Source: Centroscyllium fabricii (taxonomy: Eukaryota). From it: DNA of 64,000 nucleotides. Below the pieces are notes generated by a model. That model had not been told where the DNA came from. It did no database searches and worked only from the letters and a program-made list of their open reading frames with translations. Position numbers and translations under genes: made by a program. This document shows, piece by piece, positions 3,890-17,449 of the stretch (positions are counted from its first letter, which is position 1; each line of letters begins with the position of its first letter). The stretch lies in contig JBNRSN020000354.1 of NCBI GenBank assembly GCA_051313645.2, positions 310,001 to 374,000 on the forward strand, given 5' to 3'.

Positions 3890-4108
3890 TGTGATAATAC
3901 AGAACAGCTTCTATCTGCTTACATCACTTCCGGGGACCTATGAACTTTTGTATGATGTCACTTCCTGTAACTAGCCCAGTATAAATACTGGGCTACTCAC
4001 TATGATTTAGTAAGAGGCATAGTGAAGACCTCTTTTGTATGTAGCACCTTTATAAGTTGATTAAAGCTTACCTTAAGTTCCTATCGTGTAAGTTTCATTC
4101 TTACAACA
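3890..4108 (+). repeat. 5' LTR of Gypsy element 1
   Basis: TGTGATAATAC...TTACAACA. Contains ETS-like ACTTCC motifs, TATAAA inside the hairpin TAGCCCAGTAT/ATACTGGGCTA, and ATTAAA. Confidence 0.95.
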
Positions 4109-4191
4109 ATTTAATCAACTTTGCAAAACCTCTCACTCAACTCGAACTTTTGGACAAAACTCGGAGCTGAGGATCCAGGGAAGCCACCAGC

Positions 4192-7100
4192 ATGGAGAAC
4201 CTCCTTAGACCGACTCGTCTCGATTTGGACCCAAACACCTCAGCAGCTGATAAAGTCTGGAAACACTGGTATCACGCTTTTGAAAATTTTCTTGTATATT
4301 GTGAAGCTGATGATGACATGAAGCTCAAGTTACTAATCAACTATGTCACCCCAAGGGTATATGAATGTGTGGATCATTGGACTAATTTTGATGAGGCAAT
4401 TCGGACACTTCAGAGACTATATACTAAGACACCTAATGAGGTCTATGCTAGACATCTACTAGCTACAGCCCGACAAGGGCCAGAGGTATCAATTGATAAA
4501 TTCCTTCATGAGCTTCGCAGGCTTAGCATGAATTGTAACTTTCAGGCGGCTTCAGCTGAGCTGTACCGTGAAGAAATGATTCGTGATGCCTTCATCTGCG
4601 GGCTTGCCTCCCCATTTATTCGCCAGCGTCTACTCGAAAGTAAGACACTGGAACTACAAAAAGCTTATGACTTGGCTTGTTCTCTGGATTTGGCAAAAAG
4701 AAATGCAGACCTTTATGAAGTACCTAGACCTCGAACTGCTGCTTTAACCACAACCAGACAATTTAAGCGGCCACAGGTGAACTCTATTAGGGAGGACTGT
4801 TATCCTGATGATCAATCTGAGGACTTCACTGATGAAGAAGATAATGACCCCACTCTGGCAGCCTCTTGGCGATCTAAGAAATGCTTCTTTTGTGGTGATG
4901 AGTTTCATCCTAGGAAATTCTGCCCTGCTCGCAATGCGATTTGCAGTCATTGTGACAAAAAGGGTCATTTTGCGAAGGTTTGCTTATCACGAGCCTCTAC
5001 GAGGGCTTATCAAGCTCAGTCCTATCGAACTGCCCCAATTAGGGCCTATCAAAATATTCCGGCTAAATCTTATCATGCTTCCTCTCGGGGTTTTTCCCGA
5101 AGAAGCACACCGAGAGTTTCTGCCACTCTTTGTGCAACAACATCAATTACAGCTGCTTGTCCTCCAAATCTATTCTATGCTGCTGTGAAGGCATCAATTG
5201 CTGGACATACTTTAGATGCCTTAATTGACTCTGGCAGCTCTGATAGTTTTATTAGGGAACAAGTTGTTACAAAGTTAAAGCTACATGTTTTCCCATCCAA
5301 CCAGGCAATTGCGATGGCTCAGTCGTCGCTCAACACCAGAACCTCCGGCTTTTGTATTGTTGAAATATCACTTAATGGCCACAGGTATCCCTCTACCCGG
5401 CTTTCGGTGCTCAAGGACCTGTGTAGTGACCTTCTCTTAGGGCTGGACTTCCAAAAGCCGCATAAGACGCTCACTATTGAGTTCGGCGGATCCAAACCCG
5501 GACTCACTGTTTCTAATATCCTGCCTCAATTACCGTTCTGTGCGTTGTCAGCGGCTTCGCTGGATGAACCCTCACTATTTACCAGTATTCCTCCTCGATG
5601 CAAGCCAATTATAACAAAATCACGACGTTTCACTCAGGAAGACCAGTCCTTTATTGCGACTGAAATTTCTCGGCTTTTGGCAGAGGATATCATCGAGCCT
5701 TGTTCATCGCCATGGCGGGCCCAAGTTGTTATTGTTAAAAATCCTCTGCAGCCTCACAAGAAACGGCTGTGCATTGACTATTCACAGACCATCAATCAAT
5801 ATACGGACTTGGACGCCTACCCATTGCCGCGCATAGATGATATGGTTAATAAATTGGCTGAGTACACGGTGTTCTCAACATATGATCTGAAAAGCGCCTA
5901 TCATCAAGTACCTTTGAAAGTCTCAGACAAGCAGTATACGGCCTTTGAGGCCAATGGACGGCTGTACCAGTTCCGTCGCCTCCCGTTTGGGGTCACTAAT
6001 GGAGTGGCTGTCTTCCAGCGGGCAATGGATGACTTCGTCAAGCAGGAAAACTTAAAGGATACTTTTCCTTATCTAGATAATATTACTGTTGCAGGTCGTG
6101 ATCAACAGGAACACGACGCCAATCTCCAACGATTTCAGGATGCACTCCAGCACCGTAATTTAACATTGAATGCGTCTAAATCTATTGAGTCACAACCAAC
6201 CATCAACATCCTTGGCTATTGTGTGGGCAATGGCATAATTAAACCGGACCCTGAAAGGCTTCGTCCGCTCCAAGAGCTCCCGCCACCTAAGAATCCAGCC
6301 TCCTTGCGTCGGGCCCTCGGCCTCTTTGCGTATTATGCTAAATGGATTCCAAACTTCTCGGACAGAATCCAACCCCTACTGAAGGCCGGAACATTTCCAT
6401 TAGACACAGCGGCTGTTACAGCCTTTAATCTTCTAAAACAACTGTTGGAGAAAGCGGCCCTTCACTCTATTGATGAGAATCTGCCCTTCGTCGTTGAATG
6501 TGATGCCTCAGAAGTGGCGATCTCGGCTACTCTGAATCAGGAAGGTCGTCCGGTGGCATTTTTATCCAGGACCTTTCAAGGTGCCGAAATACATTATCCT
6601 CCAGTGGAGAAAGAAGCTACAGCCATTATCGAGGCAGTACGGAAATGGAACCATTTCCTAGCTCGGCAACACTTTACGTTAATAACAGACCAGCGATCGG
6701 TCGCTTTTATGCTTGATAATCGGAAACGAACCAAAATTAAAAATAATAAGATCCAGCTTTGGCGGATGGAGTTGGCCTCTTTCGGTTACACCATCCACTA
6801 CCGACCTGGCAAGGACAATGTGGCCCCGGATACCCTCACACGAGCATTCTGCTCCGCCGTGTCACCCTCTACTCTCGTGGACGTCCATGATGGATTGTGT
6901 CATCCTGGCGTTACCCGCATGTTACACTTCGTGCGATCACGGAATCTCCCTTTTTCTACCGGGGATGTCAAGAAGATGTGCTCGGACTGCAGAGTCTGTG
7001 CAGAATTAAAGCCTCAGTTTTTCCGCCCCTCGGGTGGTACGCTCATACATGCGACCCAGCCGATGCAACGGCTTAGCATTGATTTTAAGGGCCCGTTGCC

Positions 7101-8175
7101 CTCTTCAACTCGAAACACTTATTTACTGACCATGGTCGACGAATATTCCCGTTTTCCGTTTGCCTTTCCCTGCCCCAATATGCTGTCATCCACCGTTATC
7201 AGCTGCCTTGAACAGGTATTTTCTTTCTGTGGCATGCCGTCTTACGTTCACTCGGATCGGGGTCCTTCCTTCATGTCAGGAGAACTCAAGGCTTATCTCT
7301 CGGATCGGGGCGTTGCTACCAGTAAAACGACGCCTTATCATCCTGTCGGGAATGGGCAAATCGAACGGTATAATGGCATCATTTGGAATTCTGTACGTCT
7401 AGCTTTGAAATCTCGGGGCTTGCCCATCCAGCAATGGGAAGCAGTACTCCCAGACGCATTGCATTCTACACGGTCCCTTCTTTCGACCGCCACAAATATG
7501 ACTCCCCATGAACGATTCTTTCAATTCCAGCGTCGCTCATCCTCCGGGATCTCTCTTCCATCGTGGCTGACTACACCAGGACCGGTGTTACTCCGGAGAC
7601 ATGTCCGGGCATCCAAGAATGACCCCCTTGTAGATGAGGTGGAACTGACTGATATCAACCCGACCTATGCATATATCCGATATCCTGACGGTCGGGAATC
7701 CACTGTGTCGTTACGGGATCTGGCTCCCTGCCCGCCGAAACTTACTGGGACACCTGGGGATGGTGATTTGCCAGGCGCATCTCTGTGCTCGCCAGGTACC
7801 CCTCACCAGGATCTGGATCTGACGCCGGCTGGCACTTCACTCCAGGATACAAACCGGAGGCAGACCGACTATGAGCCCATTGGGGCTCGCACACGCAGCC
7901 ACGATCCACCACGTTCTACACGCCCAGAAACGAATCTACCACAGACCTACTCAACACCCGTTCGGGCTCAAACGCAAAGCCATGCTCTCCCAGACCCTTC
8001 ACAGGGCGGGCCAGACCACACGGATTCTGATCAATGGCCCACGGCACGTAAACGGGCTAGAGACCCTCTATCACCATGTGAACCCAAACGGGTGCGACTC
8101 TCCCTCATTCGACGGATACGTAATGAAGGGAGGATTCCGGCCTCCTACTCTTTTGGGAGGGAGGCGGCCTCCTAA
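4192..8175 (+). CDS. Gag-Pol polyprotein (Gag with two zinc knuckles, protease, RT, RNase H, integrase), 1327 aa
   Basis: CFFCGDEFH...C and CSHCDKKGHFAKVC knuckles, LIDSGS protease, RT (DLKSAYHQ, LPFG, YLDN), RNase H (CDAS, EKE, TDQ) and integrase (HHCC, IDF, HSDRG, IER), in Gypsy order. Confidence 0.96.
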   Translation: MENLLRPTRLDLDPNTSAADKVWKHWYHAFENFLVYCEADDDMKLKLLINYVTPRVYECVDHWTNFDEAIRTLQRLYTKTPNEVYARHLLATARQGPEVSIDKFLHELRRLSMNCNFQAASAELYREEMIRDAFICGLASPFIRQRLLESKTLELQKAYDLACSLDLAKRNADLYEVPRPRTAALTTTRQFKRPQVNSIREDCYPDDQSEDFTDEEDNDPTLAASWRSKKCFFCGDEFHPRKFCPARNAICSHCDKKGHFAKVCLSRASTRAYQAQSYRTAPIRAYQNIPAKSYHASSRGFSRRSTPRVSATLCATTSITAACPPNLFYAAVKASIAGHTLDALIDSGSSDSFIREQVVTKLKLHVFPSNQAIAMAQSSLNTRTSGFCIVEISLNGHRYPSTRLSVLKDLCSDLLLGLDFQKPHKTLTIEFGGSKPGLTVSNILPQLPFCALSAASLDEPSLFTSIPPRCKPIITKSRRFTQEDQSFIATEISRLLAEDIIEPCSSPWRAQVVIVKNPLQPHKKRLCIDYSQTINQYTDLDAYPLPRIDDMVNKLAEYTVFSTYDLKSAYHQVPLKVSDKQYTAFEANGRLYQFRRLPFGVTNGVAVFQRAMDDFVKQENLKDTFPYLDNITVAGRDQQEHDANLQRFQDALQHRNLTLNASKSIESQPTINILGYCVGNGIIKPDPERLRPLQELPPPKNPASLRRALGLFAYYAKWIPNFSDRIQPLLKAGTFPLDTAAVTAFNLLKQLLEKAALHSIDENLPFVVECDASEVAISATLNQEGRPVAFLSRTFQGAEIHYPPVEKEATAIIEAVRKWNHFLARQHFTLITDQRSVAFMLDNRKRTKIKNNKIQLWRMELASFGYTIHYRPGKDNVAPDTLTRAFCSAVSPSTLVDVHDGLCHPGVTRMLHFVRSRNLPFSTGDVKKMCSDCRVCAELKPQFFRPSGGTLIHATQPMQRLSIDFKGPLPSSTRNTYLLTMVDEYSRFPFAFPCPNMLSSTVISCLEQVFSFCGMPSYVHSDRGPSFMSGELKAYLSDRGVATSKTTPYHPVGNGQIERYNGIIWNSVRLALKSRGLPIQQWEAVLPDALHSTRSLLSTATNMTPHERFFQFQRRSSSGISLPSWLTTPGPVLLRRHVRASKNDPLVDEVELTDINPTYAYIRYPDGRESTVSLRDLAPCPPKLTGTPGDGDLPGASLCSPGTPHQDLDLTPAGTSLQDTNRRQTDYEPIGARTRSHDPPRSTRPETNLPQTYSTPVRAQTQSHALPDPSQGGPDHTDSDQWPTARKRARDPLSPCEPKRVRLSLIRRIRNEGRIPASYSFGREAAS

Positions 8176-8193
8176 TCTTTTGGGAGGGAAGAA

Positions 8194-8412
8194 TGTGATA
8201 ATACAGAACAGCTTCTATCTGCTTACATCACTTCCGGGGACCTATGAACTTTTGTATGATGTCACTTCCTGTAACTAGCCCAGTATAAATACTGGGCTAC
8301 TCACTATGATTTAGTAAGAGGCATAGTGAAGACCTCTTTTGTATGTAGCACCTTTATAAGTTGATTAAAGCTTACCTTAAGTTCCTATCGTGTAAGTTTC
8401 ATTCTTACAACA
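8194..8412 (+). repeat. 3' LTR of Gypsy element 1
   Basis: Identical by eye to 3890-4108. Confidence 0.95.
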
Positions 8413-14650: not shown

Positions 14651-16986
14651 TGTTACCGAATTAACGACCTCGGAGACGAGTTATAACGAGGTGAAACAAT
14701 CGGCTATTATTAGCTAAAAGGTGGGCATGCACCAGCTAGTCGACCGTCCTCAGAATGGCTGGGGGAAGGGAGACGGCCGCTTATGTACCTGGTCCTGGGA
14801 AGGAGGAGTCACAGGCGGCGCCAGCATGGGCATGCCCAGGTAGCAATACACAAAGAACTATGTACAGTACAGTTACACACAGATATATATACAACATGGT
14901 TTACCACATTCACCCACCCCTTGTTTAAAAACAAAAGTCCGGCGGGGCGAATGCGACACAGTTCTTATAAGTCAAGCCTGTCGGGCGGCCTGGTCTGTCT
15001 GGTCGATCGGCGCACCGCTGGTGGTGGAGTCGACGGGCGCACCGTTGGCAGTGGAGTCGGTAACAGCGAGGTCGGCGTGGGCGTTCGGTCCATCGTTGGT
15101 GCCCTTGCGGTAACGACCAGAGGCGCGCTCTCCCATTCGTCATCCGACTCTGGGGTGCGTGCACTAGGGGGCCATGCTGTGCTGCCTGCAGGTGCTGGGT
15201 GGGCGTACCGTGGCGCTGGAGCCTCGTGGTGAGCGACGTACCGTGGTGCTGGTGGCCCGGAGGTGGTGGCAGGCAGGCGAGGGGGTGCGGGCTGATGGGC
15301 AGAGCTGGTCTCGGGGGCACCCGCGGGTGCCAGGTCCTTGATGGACACCGTATCCTCCCTCCCGTCGGGGTACGCCACGTAGGCGTACTGGGGGTTGGCG
15401 TGCAGGAGGTGGACCCGTTCGACCAGGGGGTCCGACTTATGGCCCCTCACATGCTTCCGGAGCAGGACTGGTCCTGGGGGCGATAGCCATGACGGCAGCG
15501 AGGTCCCGGAAGCCGACTTCCTAGGGAAGGCAAAAAGTCGCTCGTGAGGGGTGGCGTTAGTGGCCGTACAAAGAAGTGACCGGATGGAGTGGAGCGCTTC
15601 GGGGAGGACGTCCTGCCAGCGGGAGACTGGGAGGCCTTTAGACCGTAGGGCTAACAGGATGGCCTTCCAGACGGTGGCGTTCTCCCTCTCTACCTGTCCG
15701 TTCCCCCGGGGGTTGTAGTTGGTAGTCCTGCTAGTAGCGATGCCTTTGGCTAGCAGGAACTGACGCAGCTCGTCGCTCATAAAGGAGGCCCCCCGGTCGC
15801 TGTGGATGTAGCTCGCCGTGCTCCCGCTGTCAAAAAGGCACTCTGTACTCCGCCCGTTCACCTCCACTGTCATCATCGATCTGCTGAGTGGCTGATTCTT
15901 GTTCTGATCCAGTGTGATGGAGGCCAGTATCGGGTCGGTCGAGTCGGTTGAGAGGTATGGGGCCTGGTCCCAAGATGGCTGCCGCCATGTGGTGTACTGT
16001 GATGGAGGTGGCTGAGACCAAGATGGCGTCTGCTGCCACGCGGCGGGTTCTGGTGAAGATGGCTGTGTCCAAGATGGCTGCCCCCATGGCCCACACGCGA
16101 CGCTGCCTGGTTTGGAGTGCGGTATTGCCGCTGCTCTGCAGACTTTTGCGTAATGTCCCTTCTTACCGCATTTCGAGCAGGCCGCGTCTTTCGCCGGGCA
16201 ATTTCGCCTGGGATGTTGGGCCTGACCGCAGAAGTAGCATTTAGGCCCTCTCAAGTGCGTAGCCACAGTCATCTCTTCCGCCGGTCGCAGCGTGGCCGGC
16301 TGTGCCCAAGATGTCGCTGATGGGGCCGCGTGGTTGCCCGAGTAAGACGACAAGTTAAGAGACGCCAAGTCCAGAGCGTTTCCCAGGTCAGCTGTCGCCT
16401 GCAGGTCCATACCGTTTTGCTCCAAGAGTCTTTGGCGGATATAGTCGGACCTGAGGCCAGTCACGTAAGCGTCCCTGATGAGACTGTCCGCGTGTACCTG
16501 GGCTGACTGTGCCTTACAGTTGCAGGCCCGGCAGAGGACTCTCAGCGCTCGTAGGAACTCCACGCTCAATTCCCCGGGTTGCTGCTTTCTGGTGGCCAGG
16601 AGGTGTCTGGCGTGGACGAGGTTCGGTGCCCGGTTATATTCGGCTTTTAGAATCCGGATCGCATCTAGGTAAGACGGTGCATCCAAGATCATCGAGTAGA
16701 CTTGGGGGCCCACCCGGGCGTTGAGAAGGCGCCGTTTGTCCTCCTCTGTCCTGACGACCACCGCGTTTGCTTTGAGGAACGCGTCAAAACAGTCGAACCA
16801 GTGCGTGAAGGTATTGGAGGCGCCTGGCGTTTGGGGATCCAGTTCGAACGTCGCTGGTTTGAGCATGGACTCCATAGTTAAATTTAGCTAATAAAATTGT
16901 TACCAAATTAACGACCTCGGAGACGAGTTATAACGAGGTGAAACAATAGGCTTTTATTAGCTAAAAGGTGGGCATGCACCAGCTAG
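14651..16986 (-). mobile_element. Internally deleted Gypsy LTR retrotransposon (element 2)
   Basis: Complete 258-bp 3' LTR 14651-14908 preceded on the minus strand by PPT GGGGTGGGTGAA. The 5' LTR remnant 16898-16986 is nearly identical to 14651-14739. Confidence 0.9.
14965..16875 (-). CDS. Gag fused in frame to protease start and integrase C-terminal half, 636 aa (RT/RNase H deleted)
   Basis: Gag is homologous to element 1 (two knuckles). LFDSGST is joined directly to ASYIHSDRGASF...VERE...LLCTATNATPHER. Confidence 0.85.
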   Translation of the reverse strand: MESMLKPATFELDPQTPGASNTFTHWFDCFDAFLKANAVVVRTEEDKRRLLNARVGPQVYSMILDAPSYLDAIRILKAEYNRAPNLVHARHLLATRKQQPGELSVEFLRALRVLCRACNCKAQSAQVHADSLIRDAYVTGLRSDYIRQRLLEQNGMDLQATADLGNALDLASLNLSSYSGNHAAPSATSWAQPATLRPAEEMTVATHLRGPKCYFCGQAQHPRRNCPAKDAACSKCGKKGHYAKVCRAAAIPHSKPGSVACGPWGQPSWTQPSSPEPAAWQQTPSWSQPPPSQYTTWRQPSWDQAPYLSTDSTDPILASITLDQNKNQPLSRSMMTVEVNGRSTECLFDSGSTASYIHSDRGASFMSDELRQFLLAKGIATSRTTNYNPRGNGQVERENATVWKAILLALRSKGLPVSRWQDVLPEALHSIRSLLCTATNATPHERLFAFPRKSASGTSLPSWLSPPGPVLLRKHVRGHKSDPLVERVHLLHANPQYAYVAYPDGREDTVSIKDLAPAGAPETSSAHQPAPPRLPATTSGPPAPRYVAHHEAPAPRYAHPAPAGSTAWPPSARTPESDDEWESAPLVVTARAPTMDRTPTPTSLLPTPLPTVRPSTPPPAVRRSTRQTRPPDRLDL

Positions 16987-16999
16987 ACTGGTCTCTCTT

Positions 17000-17037
17000 T
17001 CACCTGACGAAGGGGCAGAAGCTCCGAAAGCTTATGA
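17000..17037 (+). ncRNA. Minimal hammerhead ribozyme motif
   Basis: TCAC-CTGACGA-A-GGGGC-agaa-GCTCC-GAA-AGCT-T-ATGA, with one stem I mismatch. Confidence 0.65.
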
Positions 17038-17100
17038 TTTAAAATAAAACTGTTGGACTATAATCTGGTGTTGTGTGACTTCTTGCAGTTTTATTAGAAA

Positions 17101-17137
17101 TCACAAGCTTTCGGAGCGTTGCTCCTTCGTCAGGTGA
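17101..17137 (-). ncRNA. Minimal hammerhead ribozyme motif
   Basis: Minus strand TCAC-CTGACGA-A-GGAGC-aac-GCTCC-GAA-AGCT-T-GTGA, all stems intact. Confidence 0.78.
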
Positions 17138-17282
17138 AGTGAAGAGATGCATATAGGCACAGCATATCTAGTCAGGGAACACTGCCAGATGATTACAGGT
17201 AATCTTTCCAACTGCCCTTACCTGTGATCATCTAGCATTGTTCTCTGACTATATCTGCTGTGCCTATATGCATCTCTTCACT

Positions 17283-17319
17283 TCACCTGATGAAGGAGCA
17301 GCGCCCTGAAAGCTTGTGA
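17283..17319 (+). ncRNA. Minimal hammerhead ribozyme motif (weakened stem II)
   Basis: TCAC-CTGATGA-A-GGAGC-agc-GCCCT-GAA-AGCT-T-GTGA. Confidence 0.6.
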
Positions 17320-17449
17320 TTTCAAATAAAACTGTTGGACTCTAACCTGGTGTTGTGTGACTTATTACATTTATAACAAGCTAGATGTAGGAAGGATGTT
17401 CCCGATGGCCAGGCAGTCCAGAAGCAGGGGTCACAGTCTAAGGATAAGG

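Follow-up and report, generated by a model that had tools for sequence, protein, structure and literature searches.

A clade of animal Gypsy retrotransposons carries, directly downstream of the 5′ LTR, a short sequence that is complementary to a segment (arm) of 11-15 bases in the same LTR. Sequence comparison confirmed that the predicted helix of the two is real and conserved across a wide range of animals. It occupies the primer-binding-site (PBS) position and probably serves as a self-primer for reverse transcription, replacing the host tRNA. This is the best reading of the site, since a primer position devoid of TGG tracks the LTR of each family letter by letter.

Two Gypsy elements with an LTR-arm/PBS helix

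The window, a stretch of 64,000 nucleotides of Centroscyllium fabricii DNA, contains two distantly related elements of this clade (Table 1). The features of Ty3/Gypsy elements (domain order, TG...CA LTRs, polypurine tract, target duplication) are found in element 1, whose target duplication is 5 bp, and in full copies of the family of element 2 (family 2), which are ~4.5 kb in length and have an RT, unlike the copy in the window, which is without RT-RH. The RT active site reads YxDN instead of YxDD in most members of the clade, including the young family 1 with its identical LTRs; a minority has YLDD.

A first-pass annotation had noticed a perfect 14-bp inverted repeat one base from the LTR edge of element 2, and the PBS stretch (16883-16896) is indeed the exact reverse complement of the arm (16952-16965). 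The terminal CA of the 5′ LTR reaches 16898 on the minus strand, so that the loop of the helix consists of 54 nt of LTR plus the spacer. The AATAAA claimed for the arm on the strand of the element is also there. When the 89-nt LTR remnant was shuffled 3000 times, 14 bp was never reached, the longest being 9 bp, and the element 2 fold calculated with RNAfold has a z of −3.4, with 1 of 200 shuffles equally stable. The 11-nt core of the arm (16962-16952) starts with AG and is preceded by a pyrimidine run. In the predicted second stem, P2, GCCT (16951-16948) pairs with AGGT (16917-16914); an alternative partner is present at the LTR end.

Element 1 was said to share this geometry and does so: its paired site begins one base after the LTR, and the 12-bp helix, a length reached by 0 of 3000 shuffles, encloses a loop of 43+1 nt. 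The two elements had also been described as otherwise dissimilar in sequence. This holds for the LTRs, which give no blastn match, but only partly for the arms, which share 8 of 11 core letters. The three core pairs that differ are compensated, every one.

Table 1. Features of elements 1 and 2, in coordinates of the window
Feature	Position	Strand	Remarks
Element 1	3890-8412	plus	distant member of the same clade as element 2
Element 1 LTRs	3890-4108, 8194-8412	plus	identical, 219 bp
Element 1 helix	4054-4121	plus	arm 4054-4065 (holds ATTAAA) pairs with 4110-4121
Element 1 frame	4192-8175	plus	single, intact, 1327-aa Gag-PR-RT-RH-IN
Element 2 3′ LTR	14651-14908	minus	258 bp, TG...CA ends
Element 2 polypurine tract	14909-14926	minus	ends AA before the TG of the 3′ LTR
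Element 2 open frame	14965-16875	minus	ATG 22 nt after the LTR
Element 2 deletion junction	15803-15813	minus	11-nt overlap
Element 2 PBS position	16883-16896	minus	14 nt, no TGG, complementary to the LTR arm
Element 2 spacer	16897	minus	single A that separates the terminal CA of the LTR from the paired stretch
Element 2 5′ LTR remnant	16898-16986	minus	last 89 of 258 bp
Element 2 predicted second stem P2	16914-16951	minus	begins at the first base past the arm
Element 2 LTR arm, predicted self-primer	16952-16965	minus	AATAAA at 16958-16953

Conservation and covariation of the helix

Relatives of the two elements were found in cnidarians, nematodes, flatworms, one mollusc, one butterfly, one shrimp and one spider, with Gag kin in many phyla. 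The viral contigs searched gave no relative, the ESM Atlas returned unnamed Gag clusters only, and the best match in the PDB was Ty3. Clade DNA was taken from 80 metagenome loci, 12 genome-contig loci and several families of this genome. The elements are 4.0-4.7 kb long, with LTRs of 150-260 bp and a frame of 1180-1330 aa, and 5-bp target duplications were recognized by eye in element 1, L064, L073, L077, L082, L115, L143 and L177. The clade elements L171-L182 lie within contigs of bacterial metagenome-assembled genomes, most likely as host contamination.

The following counts are based on 31 representatives, one copy per family (L113, L212 and L094 anchored by hand), and because these share ancestry, the counts overstate the number of independent events. 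L062, L100, L101 and L139, which have no LTR end upstream of gag, and other metagenome loci lacking the gag start are not included. The 11-bp core is Watson-Crick paired in 334 of 341 cells, with 2 G-U pairs and 5 mismatches, and each of the core positions 4-11 uses two to four pair types. With its own partner the core matches at 10.8/11 and with swapped partners at 7.6/11 (0/5000 permutations). At 23 loci from 13 families the LTR end could be set independently through the paired 3′ LTR; here the match was 11/11 in 16, 10/11 in 5 and 9/11 in 2, and an unbroken stretch of at least 10 bp was present in 17 of the 23, compared to 23 of 472 cross-family swaps. L077 and L075, which are 98.8% identical, are one compensated pair apart. 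Inspection by eye revealed pairing also in L089, L138 and L174, the last being just 38% identical to element 1.

The covariation of two elements had been put forward as support for a conserved RNA structure. The representatives and the paired-LTR loci strongly support a conserved LTR-arm/leader helix, well past two elements. It had also been asked whether relatives lack the helix or carry a normal tRNA site: they keep the helix, and a TGG within the first 8 nt after the LTR occurs in 0 of the 31 representatives.

The helix is likewise the rule among copies in this genome. It is the longest inverted repeat in 42 of 51 distinct gag-anchored loci, and in the other nine the upstream DNA is disturbed, as judged by eye. 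Among the 30 best copies of each family, 28 of family 1 and 26 of family 2 have both arms exact.

That a host tRNA fragment or another small RNA primes, with the LTR match being incidental, is very improbable. Half-tRNA primers are described for some Copia lineages in the accessible part of PMC6317226, but in the present clade the site changes in step with the LTR arm of its own family, letter for letter. Moreover, a Gypsy family of TGG type in this genome, which served as negative control (L325-L329, L334, L335; young, frame of ~1960 aa, LTRs of ~660 bp, TGG five bases past the LTR), has merely 5-7 bp of self-complement. A primer built by splicing was rejected, since the complement runs uninterrupted in the unspliced LTR.

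Anatomy of the helix and the poly(A) signal

The spacer is 1 nt long in 29 of 31 representatives, a count that includes L113, which was wrongly anchored and later reset by hand. Counted from the 3′ end of the arm, the 11th base is A in 25/31 and the 10th is G in 27/31, after a T-rich run; the arm ends with AAA, followed by RCY, in 25/31, and is 23-67 nt away from the LTR end across the clade. Its 3′ end is directed into U5, which is the orientation required for a primer. Beyond the core, family-specific pairing extends into positions 12-15 (own 2.9/4, swapped 1.8/4, 0/5000 permutations) and reaches up to 19 bp, with no overall extension at positions 16-19. P2 starts at the first base after the arm in 27/31, with a mean of 4.1 bp as opposed to 2.9 bp in shuffled sequences (0/300). 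G-U pairs make up 16 of 103 cells in P2, as against the two among the 341 cells of the main helix.

The emphasis that the first-pass annotation placed on the poly(A) signal is justified for part of the clade. The hexamer of the arm is AATAAA in 11 representatives and ATTAAA in 10, and the other 10 arms have neither; read from the PBS side, three of these last are canonical, giving 24/31, and the helix is present without a canonical hexamer on either side in 7/31, plus L089 and L174. In 13 of 24 LTRs the arm hexamer is the sole AATAAA/ATTAAA of the LTR.

One could suppose that masking of the 5′ poly(A) signal is all that the helix does, with the partner of the arm existing only after the 5′ LTR, and that another primer is used. 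The canonical hexamer in 21 of 31 arms and its uniqueness in many LTRs would be expected from this. However, the helix is also kept in families that lack a canonical hexamer, and there masking cannot explain it. In addition, the helix fills exactly the position of the primer site and leaves no room for another one, and G-U is almost absent from the main helix, unlike P2. The near-invariant 11-bp register, the 1-nt spacer and the AAA|RCY junction fit a primer better than a mask. Taken together, masking as the only function is improbable; it is plausible where the hexamer is canonical and, given the 21/31 arms with AATAAA or ATTAAA, at most a side role.

Sequence variation among family copies

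Family 2 is large: the 28 nt around the LTR end of element 2 have 984 exact matches. Of the copies with an altered PBS base, 0/50 carry the matching change in the 5′ arm. Within family 2 there is thus no support for the idea that the primer is copied into the PBS. The 8th paired base of the PBS is changed from A to C in 16 copies, from A to T in 7 and from A to G in none (L337-L359), versus 984 unchanged. With the A>C change the PBS is identical to that of a sister family; the copies carrying it are scattered over the tree (13 changes, shuffled mean 14.7). The reciprocal search, with the PBS of the sister family, returned C>T 13 times and C>A not once. In L065, both LTR arms have the same substitution and the PBS keeps the letter of the family, as expected if the arms are inherited from the 3′ R.

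These variants have to be considered together with a second form of self-priming, in which the arm copy of the 3′ R, or that of a second packaged RNA, is the primer; its 3′ end, cut or ending near the hexamer, would anneal after the 5′ LTR. The arm is indeed present in both LTRs and usually terminates with the hexamer, and the A>C excess in family 2, being equal to the sister PBS, could trace a primer that came from another RNA. Polyadenylation normally cuts 10-30 nt after the hexamer, so that an additional cut would still be required. Furthermore, the 5′ fold is local and stable, with a predicted pair probability of the main helix above 0.75 in 27/31, and the reciprocal search did not return the C>A expected from an exchange. 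We consider a primer from the 3′ copy unlikely.

On a larger scale, the data fit the notion that the PBS is re-copied from the primer in each cycle: a Watson-Crick main helix stands beside a wobbly P2, and a compensated pair is seen at 98.8% identity.

Proposed mechanism of self-priming

In the preferred reading, the arm at the 5′ end of the RNA is the primer. Transcription would start at the arm or a few bases before, and the RNase H of the element would cut between the last A of the arm and the next RCY; these steps, like the extension that follows, are modelled in part on Tf1. The cut would sit where the main helix meets P2. The RT would then carry the freed 3′ end past the spacer and through the terminal 23-67 nt of the LTR (54 in element 2) before jumping to the 3′ R. 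As a side role in families whose arm holds AATAAA or ATTAAA, the hexamer would be paired and near the cap in the 5′ copy but unpaired in the 3′ copy, and there it would serve a short R as poly(A) signal.

The transcript may begin with the arm, as suggested by the 11-bp register, by an arm start that resembles the initiator consensus and by three short LTRs of 80-124 bp, in which the distance from the LTR start to the arm is 35-45 nt; two of the three have a TATA at −24 to −28. Two observations speak against it: the pairing extends to 12-15 bp, so that the conserved A may lie downstream of the actual RNA start, and TATA-like boxes are placed 54 nt (L174) and 75 nt (element 1) upstream. Read from these boxes, the arm would be located well inside R, a view that is weakened by the short LTRs; 19 of 24 LTRs have no TATA-like box upstream of the arm. 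L068, L081, L174 and L177 have strong acceptor-like sites (pyrimidine tract and CAG) ~7-35 nt upstream of the arm, possibly of an LTR intron or a trans-splicing site.

It is tempting to speculate that a Gypsy clade reaching from cnidarians to vertebrates independently invented Tf1-like self-priming, and that the same 11 bases combine three signals, for the start of transcription, for the priming of reverse transcription and for polyadenylation. Pairing would turn off the 5′ poly(A) signal, cutting would make the primer, and freed primers could be swapped between co-packaged families. As a whole this scenario is possible, though rather doubtful.

Comparison with known systems

In the accessible portions of the literature, tRNA-free priming is regarded as characteristic of the Tf1/sushi chromoviruses and of a small number of plant lineages; self-priming is described there for Tf1/sushi, Tcn1 and TAR, and priming is unexplained in Skipper, GalEa and bivalve TRIMs (PMC3601003, PMC3286476, PMC6238403, PMC6934838, PMC6317226, PMC4600332, PMC3670739, PMC2582038, PMC4558846, PMC10085805, PMC11042837, PMC7175516, PMC5006619, PMC12471100). 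The primer of Tf1, an element of fission yeast, is given as the first 11 bases of its RNA, freed by RNase H (PMC7175516, accessible part). Tf1, Tf2, Tj1 and the Tf1/sushi elements resemble the present clade in having no tRNA site but an 11-nt core right past the 5′ LTR that is complementary to an LTR segment, with an adjoining stem, as far as described in the accessible parts of PMC7175516, PMC10085805 and PMC4600332. The central duplex is found throughout the clade, not only in the 334/341 Watson-Crick cells but also in 23/23 paired-LTR loci at 9-11/11. The third Tf1 duplex, between leader and LTR loop, was not found when the Tf1 structure was taken from its text description; such pairs occur in 4/31, all competing with the main helix.

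Judged from these features, the clade probably works like Tf1/sushi elements and is not a member of them, since it lacks a chromodomain and forms a branch separate from that of sushi-like elements. Tf1/sushi chromoviruses have a chromodomain after the integrase; a Chromo or SH3_Tf2-1 Pfam match was present in 0 of 28 relatives and not in element 1. The same genome has elements that we labelled sushi-like by an SH3_Tf2-1 match and a chromodomain start recognized by eye (L263-L274, L330-L332). They have their own LTR-complementary site of 7-11 bp, which is 125-274 nt from the LTR end, in contrast to 23-67 nt for the clade arm, and their RT-RH is 26-31% identical to that of the clade. The poly(A) hexamer is usually inside the clade arm, unlike in Tf1/sushi. 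In an RT-RH tree 33 clade rows and 9 sushi-like rows are apart, with SH-aLRT 100 each; being a quick, unrooted IQ-TREE calculation with 43 rows and without named references, the tree does not settle one origin versus two.

The same rule, a complement of at least 10 bp between the LTR and the first bases past it, applies to the predicted self-primers of plant Tcn1 (a Gypsy chromovirus) and TAR (Copia) in the accessible part of PMC6317226, but these belong to other lineages and hosts, whereas the present clade is animal non-chromovirus Gypsy. The flatworm Saci2/lennie clade also has a single Gag-Pol frame, and its PBS is said to vary among families (PMC12471100, accessible part). Lennie differs in its tRNA-Leu site, 4-bp target duplications and flatworm-only Gag (PMC4558846, accessible part); the present clade has no TGG, 5-bp duplications and Gag kin in many phyla. 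One Spirometra protein groups inside the present clade, and its accession is absent from Table S1 of PMC12471100. Membership in Saci2/lennie was rejected on PBS and duplication length. Cigr-1 of Ciona intestinalis, an element of ~4.2 kb with 245-bp LTRs and one frame of ~1210 aa, is a possible relative; these values are close to the size, LTR length and frame of the clade.

Our literature search did not find self-priming described for an animal non-chromovirus Gypsy clade in the accessible portions of the papers listed above; older Levin, Butler and Cigr-1 papers and Repbase reports, beyond this coverage, may note it. If a further Gypsy clade, widespread in animals and remote from chromoviruses in its RT, shares the 11-bp register, this would mean either convergence on the helix length or a trait older than supposed, and it bears on whether self-priming preceded tRNA priming. 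Such elements would presumably escape host control by tRNA fragments at the PBS, and self-priming would explain why annotation tools find no PBS. The arm, loop and PBS make up a short RNA of ~70-90 nt that lends itself to direct tests of start, cut and poly(A) use.

The copy of element 2 in the window

Element 2 in the window is a defective Gypsy copy on the minus strand. Its frame codes for Gag with two CCHC knuckles and the protease start, joined in frame to the second half of the integrase; ~2.0 kb with the rest of the protease, RT, RNase H and the integrase start are gone. This deletion is present in 0 of the 14 family-2 copies that span both sides (19 were retrieved). The 5′ LTR remnant is 96.6% identical to the 3′ LTR, whose arm copy (14718-14705) has one substitution, within the hexamer.

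A ribozyme at this site was rejected: by eye, P2 and the loop are unlike a hammerhead core, and Rfam gave no match at gathering level, with weak miRNA-like matches only, on the adjoining inverted repeat (16990-17148). From 16990 to 17340 a short repeat is present in inverted copies, fold-backs that lie exactly where the 5′ LTR of element 2 breaks off. Further downstream, from ~30900 to 64000, the window is taken up by a long array of a 27-bp satellite with hundreds of copies and a strong G skew.
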